Made by a program: the position numbers and the translations under genes
The notes under the pieces: generated by a model
Told to the model about the DNA's origin: nothing
The model's database searches: none
What the model saw: the letters and a program-made list of their open reading frames with translations, nothing else
NCBI GenBank assembly: GCA_013286795.1
Contig: JABDFA010000009.1
Coordinates: 6,023 to 70,022, forward strand
DNA from: Candidatus Babelota bacterium
GTDB taxonomy: Bacteria; Babelota; Babeliae; Babelales; JABDEC01
Direction: 5' to 3'
DNA: 64,000 bases
Part shown: positions 3,531 through 48,207 of the stretch, piece after piece
Numbering within the stretch: the stretch's first letter is position 1
Layout: each line of letters opens with the position of its first letter

Positions 3531-3560
3531 CCCCCGGTCATGGTGAGCCTGTCGAACCAT
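3531..3560. repeat. single GC-rich repeat arm ('cccccggtcatggtgagcctgtcgaaccat')
   Basis: Same module as 29377..29415 ('ccccccgcgctcgtggtgagcttgtcgaaccat'). It is the reverse of the 36564/46247 arms ('gctcgtatggttcg'). It contains the ATG used by ORF 3540. Confidence 0.8.
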
Positions 3561-4379
3561 TTTAAAAATGTAACTTTAAGCTTAGGGTTATTTTTAAGCT
3601 TTAATATTTTTTCAGAAAAATTTATTGATTTTATGAAAGCATCTGAACATTTTAATTCAGAGTGTTTATATAATAAGAATTGGAAAAATATACAAACTAC
3701 TTTTGATAACTTTATAGATAACATTACAGTTTCTAAATCTTCTAGAATCCCCAAAATTATTCATCAGATTTGGTTAGGTGGGCCATTCCCGGAAAGATAT
3801 AAAACTTTGCAAAATAGCTGGATAAAAAATCATCCTGATTGGACCTATATTTTGTGGACAGATGAATCAGTTGAAAGATTTGGTCTTAAAAATAAAGCGC
3901 TTTACAATAAAGCTAAAAACTTAGGTGAAAGATCAGATATAGTTCGCTATGAGGTTCTAGAAAGATTTGGCGGGTTATATATTGATACTGATTTTGAATG
4001 CATAAAATCTTTTGATATTTTACATCATATTTGCGATTTTTATACAAGTGTTGGTTATGGTCCGGATCCTGTTATTTTGTGTGGTCTTATTGGTTCTGTT
4101 CCAGCACACCCTATTCTTAAAGCTTGCATAGAAACTATGAAAAGAAAAGATTCTGAAAAAGACTCTTTTACTGATATCTTAAATAGAACTAGTATATTTC
4201 ATTTTACAAAATGCTTTCTTAATAATTATACTAAATCTTCAATAGCTTTTCCGGTAACATTTTTTTACCCTTTACCTGATTGTGCAAGAAATAGTAAATT
4301 AAAAAACTATTTAAAACCGGAAAGCTTTGCTGTGCATCATTGGCATCTTTCCTGGAATAATGGGAAAATAGGAGATTAA
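3540..4379 (+). CDS. GT32-family (Och1/Gly_transf_sug-like, DxD) glycosyltransferase
   Basis: 'IPKIIHQIWLGGPFPERYKTLQNSWIKNHPDWTYILWTDESV' and 'RSDIVRYEVLERFGGLYIDTDFECI' match the GT32 sugar-binding/DxD signature. Start is uncertain: the ATG at 3540 lies in a repeat, and the next ATG is at 3633. Confidence 0.75.
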   Translation: MVSLSNHFKNVTLSLGLFLSFNIFSEKFIDFMKASEHFNSECLYNKNWKNIQTTFDNFIDNITVSKSSRIPKIIHQIWLGGPFPERYKTLQNSWIKNHPDWTYILWTDESVERFGLKNKALYNKAKNLGERSDIVRYEVLERFGGLYIDTDFECIKSFDILHHICDFYTSVGYGPDPVILCGLIGSVPAHPILKACIETMKRKDSEKDSFTDILNRTSIFHFTKCFLNNYTKSSIAFPVTFFYPLPDCARNSKLKNYLKPESFAVHHWHLSWNNGKIGD

Positions 4380-4436
4380 GTGTGAAAAAGAATTTTGATC
4401 ATATATTAAATCTCTTTCTAAAAGTTGACTCTCTCT

Positions 4437-4586
4437 CCGTTCGCCCTGCCTGCCCGGCGAAGCTCAAAGAGCGAAGTCGGGAGTATCCGTCGAAGCCTTT
4501 GGCGAAGACGGATGTATCGAAGGGTGAATATACATTGCGTTCATGGATTCGATACGTTTGCTTCGCAAACACTCACCACGAACGGG
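4437..4586. repeat. GC-rich palindromic repeat element (chimeric, ~150 bp)
   Basis: Starts 'ccgttcgccctgcc...' and ends '...gttcatggattcgatacgtttgcttcgcaaacactcaccacgaacggg'. The right half closely matches the right half of the 48089..48207 element. Confidence 0.8.
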
Positions 4587-4618
4587 TTTTGAATTCTAGA
4601 AGAAATCTGATTTATATC

Positions 4619-5569
4619 ATGTTCTTTATTTTGTTTAAGATAATTGATGTTTACTCTTTTTGTCCATTAAATAGAGCTGATTTGGTTCTGTTTTCTTATG
4701 ATAGACCATTGCAACTTTATTCTTTCCTTGAGTCTGTAAAAAAGTATATTTTTGGCATTGAAGAAATACATGTAATTTACCGTGTAAGTAATAATGAATT
4801 TGAATCTGGTTATGATATAGTAAAAAAAGATTTTGCTGATGTGATTTTTCACAAACAATTAAAAGCAGATGATTTTAAACCATTAACTCTTGAATCAATT
4901 TTTAATAATGGTTCTAGATATATAATCTTTGGTGTAGATGACATAATAGTTAAAGATTATGTAAATTTAGGTACATGCATTAATTATCTTGAAAAATCTA
5001 ATTCTTATGGTTTTTACTTACGCATGGGCAAAAATATTGTTGAGTGTTATATGCATTTTAATGAACCTACACCAGTTCCAAAAATGAACCAAATCTCCCC
5101 CCCGGTCACCCTGAGCGAAGCCCGTAGGGCGCAGTCGAATGGGTCTCCTGAGTATTTATTAACTAATGTGTATAATGGAGTCTTTCAGTGGTCATTAAAT
5201 GATGGTAAAGGCGATTGGAAATACCCCAATAATCTTGATATGACAATTTACAGAAAGTCTGATCTTAAACAACTTTATAATTACAATTTCCAAAATCCTT
5301 CTGCATTAGAAGCAGTTTGGGCAGATAATGCAAATTATAACCAAAGAGGGTTATGCTTTGAACAATCAAAGATCGTTAATCTTCCATTAAATTTGGTCAT
5401 AGATGAAGCTCGAAATTTAGATAATCGCAATTCTTCTCTTTTTAATACCAAAGAATTACTTGATAAATTTATGTCAGGATTCAAAATCGATATAAATAAA
5501 TTCTATAGAATCAATAACCTAGCACCCCATGCTGCAATTGTTCCTACATTTATTCCAAGAACAATCTAA
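4619..5569 (+). CDS. GT-A-fold-like putative glycosyltransferase carrying an in-frame repeat insertion
   Basis: 'LVLFSYDRPLQLYSFLESV' (GT-A beta1-alpha1-like) and 'YIIFGVDDIIV' (DxD-like). I chose the ATG at 4619 because the track's GTG at 4382 reads through repeat 4437..4586. No family assigned. Confidence 0.45.
   Translation: MFFILFKIIDVYSFCPLNRADLVLFSYDRPLQLYSFLESVKKYIFGIEEIHVIYRVSNNEFESGYDIVKKDFADVIFHKQLKADDFKPLTLESIFNNGSRYIIFGVDDIIVKDYVNLGTCINYLEKSNSYGFYLRMGKNIVECYMHFNEPTPVPKMNQISPPVTLSEARRAQSNGSPEYLLTNVYNGVFQWSLNDGKGDWKYPNNLDMTIYRKSDLKQLYNYNFQNPSALEAVWADNANYNQRGLCFEQSKIVNLPLNLVIDEARNLDNRNSSLFNTKELLDKFMSGFKIDINKFYRINNLAPHAAIVPTFIPRTI
5097..5143. repeat. short GC-rich repeat module inserted in frame in CDS 4619..5569
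   Basis: 'ccccccggtcaccctgagcgaagcccgtagggcgcagtcgaatggg' encodes 'PPVTLSEARRAQSNG'. A near-identical module in yidD (53553..53594) encodes 'PVTLSEARSAKSNG'. Confidence 0.85.
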
Positions 5570-6573
5570 CTTTCTTCTTCTCTTTCTTTATCTTCTTTTT
5601 CCTCTTTAGATTCTGGTTTTGTTTCCGGCATTTGCTCTGCTGCATATTCTGATATTATTCTTGCTAAATCCATAGGACAAGAAGTTGATTCTTCAATTTT
5701 TTGTGCACGTAATTCTTTAGCTCTATCAAATAACCTTAATATAACAGGAGGAAGCTTTTTCTTATAATTTGGGTAATATTTAAGAATCTTATTTTCATCA
5801 AATTTTGCATTCTTGCACAGAAGAGTTCTTATTGTATTTATAAATTTATTTAGTGTTCTTTTCGAATAATTGAAATATGTTAAATCAATTATTATTTGTT
5901 CTAATGGTGTGAATTCTCCGACAATGTTGTAAGGGTTTCCTGTGCCCTTTGTGGTAAATCGTTCACTGGTTTCATCATCAACATATACTGCTAGACTGTT
6001 AACATCAGCTCCATGATTAATTAAATATTCAGCAATTTTTAAATTGGTTTTTGGTGAAACAATGGCCGTGTTAAGAGGTGTTAGGAGTTTCATGTCTCCA
6101 TAGGGTAGATTCCCATTAATATTTGCTTTATGTTCTTCTACTAACTCTTTTACAATATCCAATCTATTTAATTTAACTGCTGTACGTAATGTTTCGCCAA
6201 AATAAGTATCAGATCTTGCTCCTTTTCTTATTAACTGCATTAATAGAGAAAGTTTTTTTGTAGGATCTTTTTTTAGTCTATTATAGTGAGTAATGATATT
6301 CACCATTTCATTATCAAGTATTTGTTTATACAAAATAATAAGTGGCATTATATTAAGATTTAGCAACACATTATGAAACTCTCTTTTATTTTTAAGAAAA
6401 TTTTGTTTTAGTTTTTCAAGAACTTGATTTCCTGGAGCAATTTGCTTATTTTCGAGATAATTTTCTATAAAAGGTATGAGTTTATAAGGATTTTCTTCAG
6501 TACCAATACTTAATAATATATTAGAAAAGGAACCAAAAAGTATGGTAATTAAAGTGATTTTAAATTTATTCAT
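5566..6573 (-). CDS. ankyrin-repeat protein with signal-like N-terminus, F-box-like motif and acidic tail
   Basis: ANK units ('LRTAVKLNRLDIVKELVEEHKANING', 'TPLNTAIVSPKTNLKIAEYLINHGADVNS'). 'CPMDLARIISEY' lies near the C-terminus, followed by the tail 'KPESKEEKEDKEREEES'. Confidence 0.7.
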   Translation of the reverse strand: MNKFKITLITILFGSFSNILLSIGTEENPYKLIPFIENYLENKQIAPGNQVLEKLKQNFLKNKREFHNVLLNLNIMPLIILYKQILDNEMVNIITHYNRLKKDPTKKLSLLMQLIRKGARSDTYFGETLRTAVKLNRLDIVKELVEEHKANINGNLPYGDMKLLTPLNTAIVSPKTNLKIAEYLINHGADVNSLAVYVDDETSERFTTKGTGNPYNIVGEFTPLEQIIIDLTYFNYSKRTLNKFINTIRTLLCKNAKFDENKILKYYPNYKKKLPPVILRLFDRAKELRAQKIEESTSCPMDLARIISEYAAEQMPETKPESKEEKEDKEREEES

Positions 6574-6677: not shown

Positions 6678-7898
6678 TCAACGTCTTTTTATAATTGTTG
6701 ATTCAAGAGTTTGAATAATATCATTTTTATTTGCTTGTTTTGCGTACCATAAAGCATTGTGGCCGAAAGTATCTACTTTTTTAATATTAGCGCCATGCTC
6801 AATTAGCTGTTTAACTACAGAATTGTTGGTAAAAATTGTTGCATAAGTAAGCGGAGTTAGACCGTCTCTGTCAGTAGAATTTATATCTGAACCCTTGGAT
6901 ATTAAGAAATCTATGATAGAAGATAATCCAAACTTTATAGCTTGCATAAGTGGCGTACGACCCTTAAAATCTTTAGAATTTATATCAAACCCTGGAGATA
7001 AATATTTGTCTACAGAATAAGCGAAGCAAACAGCTCCAGGGTTTTTATATCTTTTTTTTAAATCAATATATTTTGGTGAATCTAATTTTGGATATTTAGG
7101 TTTTTCTTTTTTATAATATTCAGCCAAAAAATACATTAAAGATTCATCTGTTTTAAAATCACTTAAAGGGTTATTCATATTATATTTGTATAAAATTTTA
7201 CTTATAAATTTAAATTTATTGCCACACATTTCTAGAGCAGGGAACATGATTGCAAGATCCCATGTCATTGTTAAAAATGAATCATCATATATAAGATCCT
7301 GAAATTTTATATTTTGAAATAACCAAGAATAATAGGTTCGCAAATGAGTTGCTAAAAAATTTGATCTGAAGCCTCTGTTTTTGATAACATCGTCGCTATA
7401 TGCAGCTGCAAAACCGGTTCCATATTCTATTGGATCACATTCATATTGTCCATATGTTAACCAGACGTTAGAATCTTGATATACATCATTTAAATATTTT
7501 AAAACATTCTCATCTTTTAAACTATCATCTCCATCTAACATAACTACAATTTCATCATGATCACACAAGCTTATTTCTGACCATAAATTTCCCATTGCTC
7601 CACGTCTTACTCTAATTTTTCTTAAAGTTACTAAATCTCCTACATTTTTTTCTTTTATATAAGCTTCGACCAGTTCTGATGTTTGTGGATCATCATTGTA
7701 TACTGCCCCATCTGCAATGTATATTATTCTAAATTTATTTTTATCATAATTTTGATTTATAGCAGAATCTAAGTTTTTCTTATAAAATGAAGCATTTTTA
7801 TAAGATGGTATTATTATTGCAAATCTTTTATCTTCACTTAACACAGTTGAAATTATGTTTAATATAATAATAGTGAGTAGTAAATTTAATTTTATCAT
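6678..7898 (-). CDS. GT2-family glycosyltransferase fused to C-terminal ankyrin repeats
   Basis: N-terminal anchor 'LNLLLTIIILNIISTVL'. GT2 start 'FAIIIPSYKNASFYKKNLDSAINQNY' and DxD 'VVMLDGDDSL'. C-terminal ANK units 'GRTPLMQAIKFGLSSIIDFLISKGSDINSTDRDGLTPLTYA...LIEHGANI'. Confidence 0.75.
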   Translation of the reverse strand: MIKLNLLLTIIILNIISTVLSEDKRFAIIIPSYKNASFYKKNLDSAINQNYDKNKFRIIYIADGAVYNDDPQTSELVEAYIKEKNVGDLVTLRKIRVRRGAMGNLWSEISLCDHDEIVVMLDGDDSLKDENVLKYLNDVYQDSNVWLTYGQYECDPIEYGTGFAAAYSDDVIKNRGFRSNFLATHLRTYYSWLFQNIKFQDLIYDDSFLTMTWDLAIMFPALEMCGNKFKFISKILYKYNMNNPLSDFKTDESLMYFLAEYYKKEKPKYPKLDSPKYIDLKKRYKNPGAVCFAYSVDKYLSPGFDINSKDFKGRTPLMQAIKFGLSSIIDFLISKGSDINSTDRDGLTPLTYATIFTNNSVVKQLIEHGANIKKVDTFGHNALWYAKQANKNDIIQTLESTIIKRR

Positions 7899-7978
7899 GA
7901 ATACCCTTTCTTTTTGATTTGTATAAGAAGTATTATAGATTAAAGTTTATTTTGAAATAATTTAAAAAAAGGTGGGTC

Positions 7979-8773
7979 GTGAAGTCAATAATAAAAAAAA
8001 TATTTTTGCTTATTATTTTAAATCTAAATTGTTTTTTATTAGCCCAAGACAAATTTAAAGTGGGGCTTCTTATAGTTGCCACAGGAAGATATATTAATTT
8101 TGTTCCAGGTTTGATTGACTCCGCAAATAAACATTTTCTTAAGGATCACAAAGTTACTTATTTTGTTTTTACTGATGATACAAGTTTTATGTATACTGAT
8201 AGTGTAAATATTTACCAAGAAAAATTGACATGGCCCTTTGCTACTATGATGCGCTTGGAAACCTATTATAAAAATAGAACCTATTTTAATGATATGGATT
8301 ATGTTTTTGCATTAGACGCAGATATGCTTTTTGTTGATGATGTTGGTAATGAAATATTATCAGAAAGAGTTGCGACCTTGCATCCAGGTTTTTATTTAAA
8401 AAAAGATTTGCCCTATGAACGAAATATTATTTCAAAAGCTTGTGTTAGTCAAAAAGAAGATAATTACTATTTTGCAGGGGGTTTTTTTGGTGGCATAAAA
8501 CAAGAGTTTATTAATTTAGTAAAAACTAATTCAGAAAATATTCAAGATGATTTGAAAAGAGGCTATATTGCTGAGTGGCATGATGAAAGTCACAATAATC
8601 GTTATTTTATAGATAATCCTCCAACAAAAATTCTTTTACCATCTTATTGTTACCCGGAAGATGCGGCATTACCCCATCTTTATGACTCGTATAAAAATAT
8701 TTTAAACATGCCAAGAAAGTTAATTGCCTTGGCAAAAAAACACTCTGAATATCAGTTACCAAATAAAAAATAG
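7979..8773 (+). CDS. GT6-family (histo-blood-group ABO / alpha-1,3-Gal(NAc)-transferase-like) glycosyltransferase
   Basis: Collinear with remembered human GTA motifs: 'HKVTYFVFTD', 'DYVFALDADMLF' (DxD), 'TLHPGFY', 'YYFAGGFFGG', 'AEWHDESHNNRY', 'PTKILLPSYCY'. GTG start after RBS 'aaaggtggg'. Signal-anchor 'IFLLIILNLNCFLLA'. Confidence 0.85.
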   Translation: MKSIIKKIFLLIILNLNCFLLAQDKFKVGLLIVATGRYINFVPGLIDSANKHFLKDHKVTYFVFTDDTSFMYTDSVNIYQEKLTWPFATMMRLETYYKNRTYFNDMDYVFALDADMLFVDDVGNEILSERVATLHPGFYLKKDLPYERNIISKACVSQKEDNYYFAGGFFGGIKQEFINLVKTNSENIQDDLKRGYIAEWHDESHNNRYFIDNPPTKILLPSYCYPEDAALPHLYDSYKNILNMPRKLIALAKKHSEYQLPNKK

Positions 8774-9475
8774 AGGTGTTTTAGAAAAGCAAATTAAAGT
8801 TCTGTGCTGGTCCTGCGTATAAGATGCACCTATTTGTGTAGATCCTAAAATTTTATAATATTTAAAACCAACAGAATTGAATCTTTCAATTTCTGTTTTA
8901 TCATCATCGTGACCTTCAAAAATTACATATTTAAAATTAGATAGAAATTTTAAAAATCTTTGTTTGTCATTTACCCATTTTAATATACTTGTACAAAGAA
9001 CTATATCATAATTATTACCTATTATTTGCTCATAATTATCTATATTAAAATCTAATTGTTTAATTTCCATGGGTATATTAAATGCTTGTTGTAATAGATG
9101 CGCTGCTTCAATCATTCTAGGGTTTCCAACCTTTGCTAGTTGCTCATTTGGCAAATCTACTCCAACACTTGATTTTGCTCTTCTAAATTTTAAAATATAC
9201 ATCGATGACATACCAATGTTGCAACCAAGTTCTAGAATTTTTTTGTTTTTAAAATTTAATGAATCTTTAATTAAATTCCATCTGTTTTCCCAAGCTCTTT
9301 CGCCGCCTATTTTTTCTCCATTTATTGTAATATTATAGTAAGATTTTCCATTTGATCCTCCTGATGGTATAGATAGTGCTTTTTTTAGAAGATCAATATT
9401 TATATCTATTAGGTTTTCAGAAGATTGGGCCATTGTAAATATAGTTGTGAATGATATTAAAGTAAGTTTTTTCAT
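8756..9475 (-). CDS. class I SAM-dependent methyltransferase with signal-like N-terminus
   Basis: Motif I 'KILELGCNIGMSS'. Downstream acidic 'VGVDL' and 'YDIVLCTSIL' fit the Rossmann MTase layout. Last gene of the minus-strand cluster. Confidence 0.65.
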   Translation of the reverse strand: MKKLTLISFTTIFTMAQSSENLIDINIDLLKKALSIPSGGSNGKSYYNITINGEKIGGERAWENRWNLIKDSLNFKNKKILELGCNIGMSSMYILKFRRAKSSVGVDLPNEQLAKVGNPRMIEAAHLLQQAFNIPMEIKQLDFNIDNYEQIIGNNYDIVLCTSILKWVNDKQRFLKFLSNFKYVIFEGHDDDKTEIERFNSVGFKYYKILGSTQIGASYTQDQHRTLICFSKTPLFFIW

Positions 9476-9476
9476 T

Positions 9477-10112
9477 TTAATTCCTTTTTTCTAATAAATC
9501 TTTTATAAAATTTTGATAATCATCTGGATTATATGAAAGCACGTGATTAAAATCAATAATCATTCTTAATTTATCAATATCATTAATGTTTATTATAGGA
9601 TCAAGATCTATTATATGATATTCATTGCAATCAAATGCTATATTATCAGGTACTAAATCTAAATAAATTACTTTATGTAATATAATTTTGCTTTTTAATT
9701 TTTCAATAAAAATTTTATAAAATTCATTTTGTGCATAAGCATCATATAGCTTTGATGCTCCTTTAAAAGAATAATATTTTAGTTTATTATTTAATGGACA
9801 ATCAACTCTGTATGTTATATAGCCTCTACATAAATTATTTTTATCATAAATTATTTCTTTTAAAGGTGATATATCTTGAAAAAATCCAGTTTTAACTGAA
9901 TGAGCAAAGAAATTGCCAAAAATATAGTCAGATTCCCATATCTTTATATATGTATTATTACTTGGATTTAGGTAAACAACTCTTGAATGTTTATTTTGTG
10001 TGGATTCTTTTATTTTTATACACTCTCTAAGATCAATAGATTCTAATTCTATTATTTTGTAATTAGCATTTAAGTTTGTACTTAAAAAAAACAAGAATAA
10101 ATTAAATAGCAT
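9477..10112 (-). CDS. small protein-kinase-like-fold protein (sugar/LPS-kinase-like), signal-like N-terminus
   Basis: 'TYIKIWE' (beta3 Lys-like), 'VIYLDLVPDNIAF' (catalytic-loop D..N-like) and 'YHIIDLD' (DFG-equivalent Asp). Motif-level resemblance only. Confidence 0.35.
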   Translation of the reverse strand: MLFNLFLFFLSTNLNANYKIIELESIDLRECIKIKESTQNKHSRVVYLNPSNNTYIKIWESDYIFGNFFAHSVKTGFFQDISPLKEIIYDKNNLCRGYITYRVDCPLNNKLKYYSFKGASKLYDAYAQNEFYKIFIEKLKSKIILHKVIYLDLVPDNIAFDCNEYHIIDLDPIININDIDKLRMIIDFNHVLSYNPDDYQNFIKDLLEKRN

Positions 10113-11070
10113 TTACCCACTCGATAAAATTTAAAAGTGTATTAATCCTATTTATATATGTGTGATTATTTTTTACAAAATCCATTAATTCAAAAAGTTC
10201 TTCTTGTTGGATATTTTTTAATTTTTCTAAAGCATCATAAAATAATTGATAAGTATTAGAATTATAAACTATTTTTTTATTAAAGAATTTATAAACTGTT
10301 TCTGAATTAGTGATTCCTATTTGACCGTAGCTTATATTTTTAAAAATCCTACAAGGGATGTATCCTTGTTCACATTGCCATTCTCCTTGTAAGGCTGGAG
10401 CCATAAAGGATTGTTGCGTTAATAAAATATTTTCTTCATTTGTTACATTTGTTAAATGTTCAAAATCGATACCATTTTCTTGACATGCTTTTTTAAATGA
10501 ATCTGTTTTATCTTGATTTCCAAAATTTCCAATACCTATTGTTCCAATAAAATAAATCTTCTTAGATTTTTGAATTTTTTGTATAACAGTTTTATTTTTT
10601 TCTATTTCTTCAGGTAATAGATCAGTTGCCCAGGGCATGTATATTATTCTGTCATAAGGGTTACAAAAAATTCCATTTTCTAATTTAGTTACATTACGTT
10701 CTTCACATTCTAAGGTATAAACTTGTAAATATATACATCTATTTTTTTTTATTAATTCATTATATTTCTCAAAATTACAATTATGTAAAATATAAAAACA
10801 ATCTTCACGCAATGGTATATTTTGATCAGCTTGGCCCTCTGTTAAAAATAAACTATTTGAGAAATCAATATTTTTTAAATCATCTTCTTTATCTAACCAG
10901 AGTGTATTATATCCCATAAAATTGAAAGCTTTAAAAAAAGCGCTATGGATATATGAATGTGTATGACTATGTAATTTGTGACCCCAAATTATTACTTTAT
11001 CAAAACTTAATTTTGCTATTATATTAAAACTCAAAAAAAATTGTAATAAAATTAATTTTTTATATTTCAT
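10102..11070 (-). CDS. hypothetical protein, possible GT-B-like glycosyltransferase
   Basis: ORF in an operon position. Start moved to 'MKYKKLILLQFF' (11070) because the 'MDICIKN' extension overlaps the upstream stop. 'KIYFIGTIG' and 'PCRIFKNISYGQIGITNS' are weakly GT-B/CgeB-like. Confidence 0.3.
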   Translation of the reverse strand: MKYKKLILLQFFLSFNIIAKLSFDKVIIWGHKLHSHTHSYIHSAFFKAFNFMGYNTLWLDKEDDLKNIDFSNSLFLTEGQADQNIPLREDCFYILHNCNFEKYNELIKKNRCIYLQVYTLECEERNVTKLENGIFCNPYDRIIYMPWATDLLPEEIEKNKTVIQKIQKSKKIYFIGTIGIGNFGNQDKTDSFKKACQENGIDFEHLTNVTNEENILLTQQSFMAPALQGEWQCEQGYIPCRIFKNISYGQIGITNSETVYKFFNKKIVYNSNTYQLFYDALEKLKNIQQEELFELMDFVKNNHTYINRINTLLNFIEWVNAI

Positions 11071-11075
11071 ATTTT

Positions 11076-14960
<3,885 letters not shown>

Positions 14961-14965
14961 TTAAA

Positions 14966-22665
<7,700 letters not shown>

Positions 22666-32081: not shown

Positions 32082-32330
32082 CCGTTCGCCCTGAGCGACC
32101 TCTGAGCGAGCGTTTACGCGAGTCGATGAGGGAGTCGAATGGGTAAAAATTTTCTTAAAAATTTTATATTTTTTTGCATGAAATAATTTTTTTAAATATT
32201 CAATTATAATAATATTTAAAAACTTAATCTTTTTTTTAGAATACAGGAAACCCGTTCGACTCATTCTTCAACTCTCCTTCGACTCGCTTTGCTCGCTCAG
32301 GATCGTTCAGAATTCGCTCAGGGCGAACGG
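32082..32330. repeat. composite GC-rich inverted-repeat (MITE-like) element, copy 2 of 4
   Basis: 17-bp perfect termini 'ccgttcgccctgagcga' / 'tcgctcagggcgaacgg'. GC-rich arms flank an AT-rich spacer whose 5' part is conserved with copies 1 and 3. Lies between convergent genes. Confidence 0.9.
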
Positions 32331-32362
32331 AGAAAGGGTAACTTTTAAACTTAGACTGATAA

Positions 32363-36550: not shown

Positions 36551-36563
36551 TAGTTTCCTTAAT

Positions 36564-36677
36564 GCTCGTATGGTTCGTCCTTCGATTTCGTGCTACGCAC
36601 TTCACTCAGGATGACCGGGGGAGGGAGGAAAAAAGTCCAGTCATGCTGAGCTTGTCGAAGCATCACCACGAGCGCGC
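36564..36677. repeat. GC-rich repeat pair filling the ogt-grpE spacer
   Basis: 'gctcgtatggttcgtccttcgatttcgtgctacgcacttcactcaggatgaccgggggaggg' followed by 'gtcatgctgagcttgtcgaagcatcaccacgagcgcgc'. Confidence 0.85.
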
Positions 36678-36685
36678 TTTAACGT

Positions 36686-46166: not shown

Positions 46167-46246
46167 TATCTTTAATTTTATAAGTCTTTGTTTTGATAAT
46201 ATCGTAATTTTATATAGAATAAATAATAGACTTATTACTAAATTGT

Positions 46247-46341
46247 GCTCGTATGGTTCGACAAGCTTCCAGCCTACGCTTTAGTCTTCGCTAAAGCTAT
46301 GCCGGACAAGAAAGCTACGGCGGACAGGCACCATGAGCGGG
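46247..46341. repeat. GC-rich repeat element upstream of argS
   Basis: 'gctcgtatggttcgacaagcttccagcctacgctttagtcttcgctaaagctatgccggacaag...ggcaccatgagcggg'. Shares 'gctcgtatggttcg' with 36564 and 'cttcgctaaagct' with the tRNA-spacer repeats. Confidence 0.8.
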
Positions 46342-48022: not shown

Positions 48023-48088
48023 TAAGTTAAGATTAACTTGATAATTAATTTTATTGTTGCGGGTCGTTAACAAAAATTATAAAAAAAT

Positions 48089-48207
48089 CCGTTCGTGGTG
48101 AGTAGCCCGTTAGGGCGTATCGAATCCATGAATGCATATTAAGACTTTTATTTGAGTTCATGGTTCGATAAATTTTTGCTTACGCAAAAACACTCACCAC
48201 GAACGGG
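48089..48207. repeat. long palindromic GC-rich element with 15-bp perfect terminal inverted repeats
   Basis: 'ccgttcgtggtgagt' pairs with 'actcaccacgaacgg'. Inner pairing 'cgaatccatgaa' / 'ttcatggttcg'. Lies between argS and tsf. Confidence 0.85.

Follow-up and report, generated by a model that had tools for sequence, protein, structure and literature searches.

Three clades have been distinguished within glycosyltransferase family 6 (GT6): a prokaryotic clade with a DxD motif (cyanophage P-SSM2, a marine metagenome and PaGT6), a vertebrate clade, and a bacterial clade with N-X-N in its place and a C-terminal membrane-binding domain (PMC3516806). PaGT6, the enzyme of Parachlamydia acanthamoebae (Hall's coccus), was expressed and assayed by Thiyagarajan et al. 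(2012, Sci Rep 2:940; PMC3516806); it carries DxD, is inactive without Mg2+ or Mn2+, and transfers N-acetylgalactosamine (GalNAc) to the H-trisaccharide and to 2'-fucosyllactose, not to N-acetyllactosamine. Pham et al. (2014) likewise described it as metal-dependent, and as one of the two bacterial DxD GT6 enzymes then known (PMC3961637). In this study, a stretch of 64,000 nucleotides from a Candidatus Babelota bacterium (contig JABDFA010000009.1, positions 6,023 to 70,022; hereafter the window) was analysed, which encodes a GT6 protein at positions 7979-8773. The sequence comparisons make it highly probable that this gene is a functional member of the described prokaryotic DxD clade (that of PaGT6 and cyanophage P-SSM2), residing in a host of the Dependentiae (Babeliales). 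The gene and its landmarks are:

7969-7975, + strand: Shine-Dalgarno-like AAGGTGG, 3 nt 5' of the GTG start (direct sequence reading)
7979-8773, + strand: GT6 glycosyltransferase gene, intact, GTG start, 264 aa (open reading frame, Pfam, PDB, AlphaFold2, Foldseek)
7979-8044, + strand: predicted Sec signal peptide, residues 1-22, MKSIIKKIFLLIILNLNCFLLA followed by QD (sequence features, AlphaFold2, rule-based test)
8315-8323, + strand: DxD metal/UDP-binding motif D113-A-D115 (equivalent to GTA D211-V-D213, a3GalT D225-V-D227 and BoGT6a N95-A-N97)
8474-8482, + strand: donor-specificity triplet A166-G167-G168 (equivalent to GTA L266-G267-G268; ungapped HMMER and MAFFT alignments)
8576-8593, + strand: catalytic WHDESH segment W200-H-D-E203-S-H (equivalent to GTA W300-E303)
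8735-8755, + strand: C-terminal diphosphate-binding segment with K253 (equivalent to GTA K346), H255 (H348) and Q259 (at GTA R352) (alignment)

The window protein belongs to GT6 by sequence as well as by fold, at a level well above chance, and every catalytic residue of the family is conserved in it. It matches Pfam PF03414 (Glyco_transf_6) over profile positions 72-294 of 313 with 168.4 bits (E 2.1e-49; the curated cut-off is 25 bits), and phmmer comparison with PDB sequences returned bovine a3GalT (1.8e-38), human GTA/GTB (~1e-37) and Bacteroides ovatus BoGT6a (1.4e-35). The AlphaFold2 model, built from a 42-sequence alignment, reached a mean pLDDT of 96 and a pTM of 0.90; its GT-A fold is superimposable on solved GT6 structures, and the best 50 Foldseek matches in the PDB were all GT6 (GTA, GTB, a3GalT and BoGT6a; E ~1e-25, TM 0.74-0.87). 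The architecture is minimal: the 264 aa comprise a domain spanning residues 26 to ~260 and, ahead of it, a hydrophobic N-terminal segment of 22-25 residues, while Pfam, AlphaFold2 and the alignment revealed neither a vertebrate-type stem nor a C-terminal extension or BHB membrane-binding domain.

Individual residues were mapped on a MAFFT alignment of the window GT6 with GTA, a3GalT, BoGT6a and its 120 nearest homologues. The segment ALDADMLF pairs gap-free with CVDVDMEF of GTA and CMDVDQVF of a3GalT, which places its two Asp residues on the catalytic DxD of both. An earlier reading of this DNA, made from the letters alone (the sequence-only reading), had held that the protein is collinear with the GTA/GTB catalytic domain and keeps an intact DxD, and the alignments with PDB sequences bore out both points: every GTA motif that it had named is present in the PDB sequence, and they pair with HKVTYFVFTD, ALDADMLF, TLHPGFY, YFAGGFFGG, AEWHDESHNNRY and PTKILLPSYCY of the window protein. 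In the WHDESH segment, D202 and E203 are invariant in alignment A1; other positions that match functional residues of GTA, a3GalT or BoGT6a are Y38 (GTA Y126), R92 (R188), H135 (H233), G137 (G235), F138 (F236), H201 (H301) and D202 (D302). Pro226, at the position of GTA D326, is common to BoGT6a and 111/120 relatives. As for the C-terminal segment, the last 27 residues of GTA in the alignment (giving K346, H348 and R352) are what we take to be that sequence; the near invariance of K253 in alignment A1 is independent of this part. The possibility of a pseudogene or inactive copy was rejected, because the open reading frame is full-length and all catalytic residues are present. Two further features of the gene were recorded. 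An insertion of ~11 residues, HLYDSYKNILNM (residues ~232-243, nt 8672-8707), lies just ahead of the C-terminal Lys segment; it is an insertion relative to the phage, Chlamydiota and BoGT6a sequences, and the AlphaFold2 model shows a helix there with high confidence. At its 3' end, the gene shares 18 nt (8756-8773) with the 3' end of a methyltransferase gene that converges on it (8756-9475, - strand).

In a large GT6 clade of bacteria and phages, already described and assayed, DxD is the usual state. In a word-indexed search, 5.8 billion proteins yielded 1413 matches to the window GT6; in the best 120 of these (50-75% identical), both Asp residues of the motif are invariant (120/120). Searched exhaustively with HMMER, 1.84 billion 50%-identity cluster representatives yielded 2474 clusters at E<=1e-3 (379 at E<=1e-30), and the domain copies in the best 150 of the 2474 representatives comprise ~146 with DxD, 4 with NxN and a few degenerate ones. 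When one genome per GTDB species was scanned, 511 loci proved to encode a GT6 relative, and DxD occurs in 84/84 GT6 copies of the best 80 of these loci, all from bacterial genomes. DxD far outnumbers NxN in the sampled prokaryotic relatives of this protein; the samples, ordered by their similarity to a DxD-bearing query, show that DxD enzymes are numerous, not what the overall DxD:NxN ratio is. The best 80 loci include 18 from Dependentiae/Babeliales/TM6, 26 from Chlamydiota (Parachlamydiaceae, Simkaniaceae, Rhabdochlamydiaceae and others), 9 from Pseudomonadota, 4 from Verrucomicrobiota and 23 without a taxon label; one of them belongs to a cultured Dependentiae strain, Noda2021. GT6 is also encoded by 72 phage records, mostly of cyanophages, and all three phage enzymes examined have DxD: P-SSM2 (YFDVDMGI), the uncultured large phage LR745206 (YCDSDMRF) and Synechococcus phage ACG-2014f (FMDADTQV).

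These distributions correct the common simplification that bacterial GT6 enzymes carry NxN, which is valid only for the gut/pathogen clade with the C-terminal membrane-binding domain. The sequence-only reading had taken NxN to be the rule for characterised bacterial and phage enzymes; this holds for the Bacteroides/E. coli-type clade just mentioned, and fails for the prokaryotic DxD clade and for the phages. That reading had also treated DxD as remarkable in a bacterium unless many ordinary bacterial GT6 enzymes turned out to have it, and the counts given above (120/120, ~146 against 4, and 84/84) show that they do. The counts also document a wide occurrence of GT6 in Dependentiae and Chlamydiota, with 80 species-level genomes among the best matches of the 511 GTDB-representative loci. 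The DxD motif of the window protein in itself matters little, a metal-dependent bacterial DxD GT6 having been described and assayed since 2012.

It might still be argued that the window gene is an exceptional bacterial GT6 that kept the metazoan DxD and is unusually animal-like, for instance through a recent transfer from or to animals. The motif is indeed present and correctly aligned, BoGT6a, the best-known structurally characterised bacterial enzyme, has NxN (PMC3961637), and the single best PDB match of the window protein is a mutant of bovine a3GalT. This match (2vxl) is a variant with AGG at the donor triplet, unlike other a3GalT entries, and probably ranks first because of that triplet, which the window protein shares; we take it to be a variant engineered for the use of UDP-GalNAc. 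The census refutes the notion of an exception, since DxD is universal among the nearest prokaryotic relatives examined and is found in the phage enzymes, and both a prokaryotic DxD clade and a metal-dependent member of it were published in 2012 (PMC3516806). Nor do the identities over the trimmed alignment disclose a special affinity to animals: they amount to 34.8% with GTA, 37.7% with a3GalT and 35.0% with the NxN enzyme BoGT6a, so that vertebrate and NxN enzymes lie at much the same distance from the window protein (35-38% identity) and the suggestion that it stands nearer to the metazoan state finds no footing. An exceptional, animal-like status of the window gene is for these reasons extremely improbable.

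Its nearest relatives are bacterial. Over the same trimmed alignment, its identity is 58.4% with a protein of a Babeliales metagenome-assembled genome (MAG) and 56.1% with one of a Parachlamydiaceae MAG, and the nearest genome match is a Babeliales MAG (55-58% identity). A neighbour-joining tree of 166 domains was used solely for shallow grouping and for the separateness of the vertebrate clade. In this tree, the window GT6 pairs with a Babeliales sequence and one metagenomic protein (bootstrap 64), and a group of 71 leaves contains it together with all 20 labelled Dependentiae/Chlamydiota sequences, with GTA, a3GalT and BoGT6a outside and with unsupported deep nodes. The vertebrate sequences (GTA and a3GalT) form a clade of their own (core bootstrap 97-98), which does not include the window protein. 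Because the deep nodes are unsupported, no claim is made on the prokaryotic sister group of the vertebrate enzymes.

The donor triplet can be read in the correct register. N-Y-Y-F-A-G-G-F-F-G-G of the window protein pairs gap-free with D-F-Y-Y-L-G-G-F-F-G-G of GTA, and both the HMMER and MAFFT alignments are ungapped there; the donor segment YYFAGGFFGG had been thought to be one residue longer than in GTA/GTB, and Gal versus GalNAc to be unreadable for that protein, because the strings had been compared one residue out of register. With the register corrected, the choice between Gal and GalNAc is therefore readable, at least provisionally. The triplet is AGG in 115 and CGG in 5 of the 120 nearest homologues, and BoGT6a, a user of UDP-GalNAc, has AGG as well. 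AGG and CGG are both listed by Yamamoto et al. (2014) among the motifs of bacterial A-type (GalNAc-specific) genes (PMC5377540). From the triplet, the donor is provisionally read as UDP-GalNAc.

The N-terminus of the protein has the appearance of a Sec signal peptide: MKSIIKKIFLLIILNLNCFLLA consists of a basic n-region (lysines), a short uncharged hydrophobic core and, just ahead of QD, a small residue, and in the AlphaFold2 model a helix (residues 2-21) precedes the first beta-strand at residue 27. By a crude set of rules of our own, used in place of a trained predictor, 111/120 nearest homologues and 0/120 threonyl-tRNA synthetase (ThrRS) controls pass as bearing a signal peptide. A comparable extension ahead of the domain is found in 106/120 nearest homologues and at 77/80 genomic loci. 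BoGT6a starts directly at the first strand, as the phage enzymes do, and among the 150 more distant representatives no extension is seen in 65, a short hydrophobic one in 31 and a long N-terminal region in 49. In the window itself, by the same crude test, nearly every protein encoded between 83 and 24356 has a signal-peptide-like N-terminus, the Dps-like ferritin (1399-1875) being excepted; among them are ankyrin-repeat proteins at 83-1024 and 5566-6573.

The gene lies amid other genes for known or putative glycosyltransferases, whose homologues were counted near GT6 in the best 80 related loci:

3540-4379, + strand: GT32-like glycosyltransferase (Gly_transf_sug) with a hydrophobic N-terminus (Pfam PF04488, 8.7e-16)
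4619-5569, + strand: unannotated GT-A-like protein with the GT-A-typical motifs SYDRP and VDD (family A3), probable start ATG 4619 (start deduced from homologues)
6678-7898, - strand: GT2 domain fused to ankyrin repeats, divergent from GT6, with a signal-peptide-like N-terminus (Pfam GT2 3.8e-8, Ank_2 1.6e-28)
8756-11091, - strand: convergent run of a methyltransferase (8756-9475), an unknown protein (9477-10112) and an unannotated GT-B-like protein (10102-11091, family A2) (weak Pfam methyltransferase matches)

The most constant partner is GT2: a homologue is present in 74/80 loci, its centre lies a median 0.9 kb from that of GT6, and in 62 loci both genes are on one strand. The GT32-like gene has homologues near GT6 in 20/80 loci, family A3 in 36/80 and family A2 in 20/80. 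A3 gave no Pfam or PDB match in single-sequence and profile searches, apart from a weak hint of GT2 in one member; A2 gave no PDB match in the same kinds of search, and 4/15 of its members have weak Glyco_trans_1_2 matches (best E 2.5e-4). Each of the two probably represents a glycosyltransferase family not yet described. GT11, the alpha1,2-fucosyltransferase family (P-SSM2 type), occurs ~2.6 kb from GT6 in 23/80 loci, mostly of Chlamydiota (e.g. 7567-8319 in L010, 6741-7451 in L035 and 5875-6579 in L038, among loci L005-L080), and a GT11 gene is close to the GT6 gene of P-SSM2 too. About 20 of the 23 GT11 neighbours have a hydrophobic, signal-peptide-like N-terminus, and most of the neighbouring families (GT2, GT11, GT32-like, A2 and A3) carry such N-termini as well. 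The combination of GT11 and GT6 with signal peptides suggests an exported module of the H-to-A antigen type, and the GT11 neighbours in Chlamydiota would fit a Fuc-alpha1,2-Gal acceptor, as for PaGT6. Among the papers in the library searched, none connects Dependentiae with glycosyltransferases.

The window GT6 could also be viewed as a cytoplasmic-face enzyme of surface polysaccharide or O-antigen synthesis, like WbnI of E. coli O86 or BoGT6a, with its N-terminus serving as a membrane tether; it would then cap a lipid-linked oligosaccharide with an A-antigen-like structure. Such a role is established for the other bacterial GT6 enzymes (PMC3516806, PMC5377540); the presence of several glycosyltransferase-like genes around the window gene is in keeping with it, and the GT11 and GT2 partners in related genomes recall blood-group O-antigen clusters. 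Against this stand the N-terminus, whose signal-peptide-like character predicts a catalytic domain outside the cytoplasm, the absence of most lipopolysaccharide synthesis genes from Babeliales (PMC4776705), and the fact that no Pfam-recognisable flippase, polymerase or initiating transferase was met among the scanned neighbour genes, in a search that was not exhaustive. We regard a cytoplasmic-face role as unlikely.

Ahead of the convergent run, on the same - strand and followed by it, lie three tandem paralogues of 1283-1288 aa (11076-14942, 14966-18817 and 18802-22665), each with a signal-peptide-like N-terminus, with (G-T-T / G-x-T)n repeats that form a very long collagen-like region, and with C-terminal FG-GAP-like repeats. 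The collagen-like regions (Pfam Collagen 5.5e-76) have a 9-nt period over ~1.4 kb, and the three genes account for a GC content of 0.46 and for strong AT-skew blocks. They are co-directional with the GT-B-like, unknown and methyltransferase genes and abut them, and this arrangement may be a glycosylated-fibre operon. The GT6 could, then, help to glycosylate these three threonine-rich proteins (11076-22665), in the manner of Bacillus BclA or of giant-virus fibres. The (G-T-T)n proteins are only 2.3 kb from GT6, the end of the methyltransferase gene in the intervening same-strand run overlaps the GT6 stop, and all of these proteins have signal-peptide-like N-termini. However, collagen-like or FG-GAP homologues are neighbours of GT6 in 0/80 related loci, as against 74 with the GT2 partner, and the GT6 gene is on the opposite strand. 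In addition, as is generally known for the family, GT6 enzymes extend galactosides and are not known to initiate O-glycans on threonine. A part for GT6 in fibre glycosylation is thus quite improbable, more so than the cytoplasmic-face role.

With membership in the prokaryotic DxD clade as the preferred reading, we infer the metal dependence, donor, acceptor and export of the window GT6 as follows. By homology, it would be a retaining alpha-1,3 transferase of the GT-A fold, in which D113 and D115 would hold Mn2+ or Mg2+, with the metal bridging the UDP diphosphate, E203 of WHDESH would act as the catalytic carboxylate and K253 would assist the departure of UDP. Metal dependence is expected because of the DxD motif and the PaGT6 assay. 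UDP-GalNAc is the most likely donor, because the small A166-G-G168 would leave space for the N-acetyl group. The most likely type of acceptor is a beta-galactoside, possibly Fuc-alpha1,2-Gal as with PaGT6, and this is the weakest step of the proposal. The protein would be exported by Sec together with its partner glycosyltransferases; action outside the bacterial cytoplasm is probable because of the signal peptide, the conserved GT2 partner and the other signal-peptide-bearing glycosyltransferase-like genes, and a host-derived compartment is the candidate source of UDP-GalNAc for the exported enzyme.

Several observations weigh against parts of this proposal. The placement in the PaGT6 clade rests on Parachlamydiaceae/Protochlamydia homologues (52-56% identical) and on the published description of the clade, not on the sequence of PaGT6 itself, and the exact-split bootstrap of the 166-leaf tree gives zero support to all large clades and deep nodes. 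Two acceptor- or UDP-contacting positions deviate from GTA: Pro145 stands at T245, where just 12/120 relatives have Pro, and Gln259 at R352, where 26/120 relatives have Gln and 88/120 have Arg. No GT11 homologue is detectable in the entire 64-kb window, which leaves a fucosylated acceptor without local support; because of this and of the Pro at T245, the acceptor of the window GT6 is uncertain. The signal-peptide rules, besides being crude and home-made, gave a pass to one NxN protein lacking any N-terminal extension. Finally, Leloir enzymes need cytoplasmic nucleotide sugars, which makes signal peptides on GT6 and on its glycosyltransferase neighbours odd: for a Leloir enzyme behind a signal peptide there is no known periplasmic supply of UDP-sugars, which makes its site of action hard to explain.

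This oddity is a more promising observation than the DxD motif: Sec-type signal peptides are predicted on nearly all members of the GT6 subclade and on nearly all of its conserved GT2, GT11 and GT32-like neighbours. Tentatively, and with more doubt than confidence, GT6 may be regarded as part of a Sec-exported, Golgi-like glycosylation toolkit common to protist-associated Dependentiae and Chlamydiota. A possibly new element is that, in both groups, GT6 and the glycosyltransferases beside it consistently bear predicted signal peptides. In keeping with export, TM6 genomes conserve components of type II secretion (PMC4776705). If truly exported, it must act where UDP-sugars exist outside the bacterium, the obvious place being a host-derived vacuole or the host secretory pathway, and surface glycans of the host or the bacterium could there receive blood-group-A-like caps. 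Under the same supposition, a metal-dependent prokaryotic GT6 already equipped with a signal peptide would be well suited as the donor in the horizontal transfer from which the vertebrate GT6 family has been proposed to descend.

The DNA around the gene is a bacterial chromosome, because the window carries dnaE, argS, thrS, tig and an ABC-F gene; two tRNA genes are also present. The best named matches of its ThrRS are from Ca. Babeliales/Dependentiae (65-70% identity), a group of obligate intracellular associates of protists, and its GC content is 0.25-0.33 outside the repeat genes. A giant-virus origin, considered in view of the low GC content, the collagen-like and ankyrin proteins and the tRNAs, was rejected on the evidence of DnaE, ArgRS, ThrRS, trigger factor and ABC-F. 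Short GC-rich islands (GC 0.51-0.57, against ~0.29 for the genome) were noticed at 4426-4600, 5061-5160, 32241-32340, 36561-36680, 46241-46340 and 48084-48207. The first of them folds into several hairpins (RNAfold -64 kcal/mol), and motifs of 13-20 nt from it recur inside or next to 32241-32340 and 48084-48207, elsewhere in the window, and in L025 and L063, two Dependentiae loci. This first island has no Rfam match, and a search for repeat copies found short shared motifs only; it looks like a dispersed element of the REP/MITE type (repetitive extragenic palindrome or miniature inverted-repeat transposable element). The mechanically called open reading frame 4382-5569 is probably over-extended through this island, the likely true start of the A3 gene being ATG 4619.

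Among the closest described systems is PaGT6: like the window protein it is bacterial, its host is an amoeba-associated intracellular organism, it is a minimal catalytic domain of ~27 kDa with DxD, and it has no C-terminal BHB domain. Parachlamydiaceae, Protochlamydia, other Chlamydiota and Dependentiae supply the nearest relatives with a name (52-58% identity to the window protein). The differences are that the host phylum of the window protein is Dependentiae and that a signal peptide goes unmentioned for PaGT6 in PMC3516806 and PMC3961637.

The GT6 of cyanophage P-SSM2 (PSSM2_268) shares with the window protein the DxD (YFDVDMGI), the minimal domain, WHDESH and the C-terminal Lys, at 40% identity over 89% of the query. 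Unlike the window protein, the phage enzymes begin right at the first beta-strand, without a hydrophobic N-terminal extension, and the P-SSM2 gene stands in a run with GT11 and nucleotide-sugar epimerase genes, neither of which was seen in the window. BoGT6a (PDB 4AYJ, 4AYL and 4CJ8) has the same fold (Foldseek TM 0.80-0.87), the AGG triplet and Y-P-E in place of W-D-Q of GTA, at 35% identity. It differs from the window protein in having N95-A-N97, in being metal-independent, in lacking a signal peptide and in possessing, at full length, a C-terminal membrane-binding domain (PMC3961637, PMC3516806); where the clade of BoGT6a has NxN, the window protein has D-A-D.

The vertebrate enzymes GTA/GTB and a3GalT (E 1e-37 to 1e-38) have in common with the window protein the DxD, a collinear domain, all catalytic and UDP-binding residues and a hydrophobic N-terminal segment. 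They differ by a cytoplasmic tail, a transmembrane anchor and a long stem, so that the catalytic domain of GTA starts near residue 110 and that of the window protein at residue 26, and in the donor triplet, which is LGG or MGA in GTA/GTB and AGG in the window protein.

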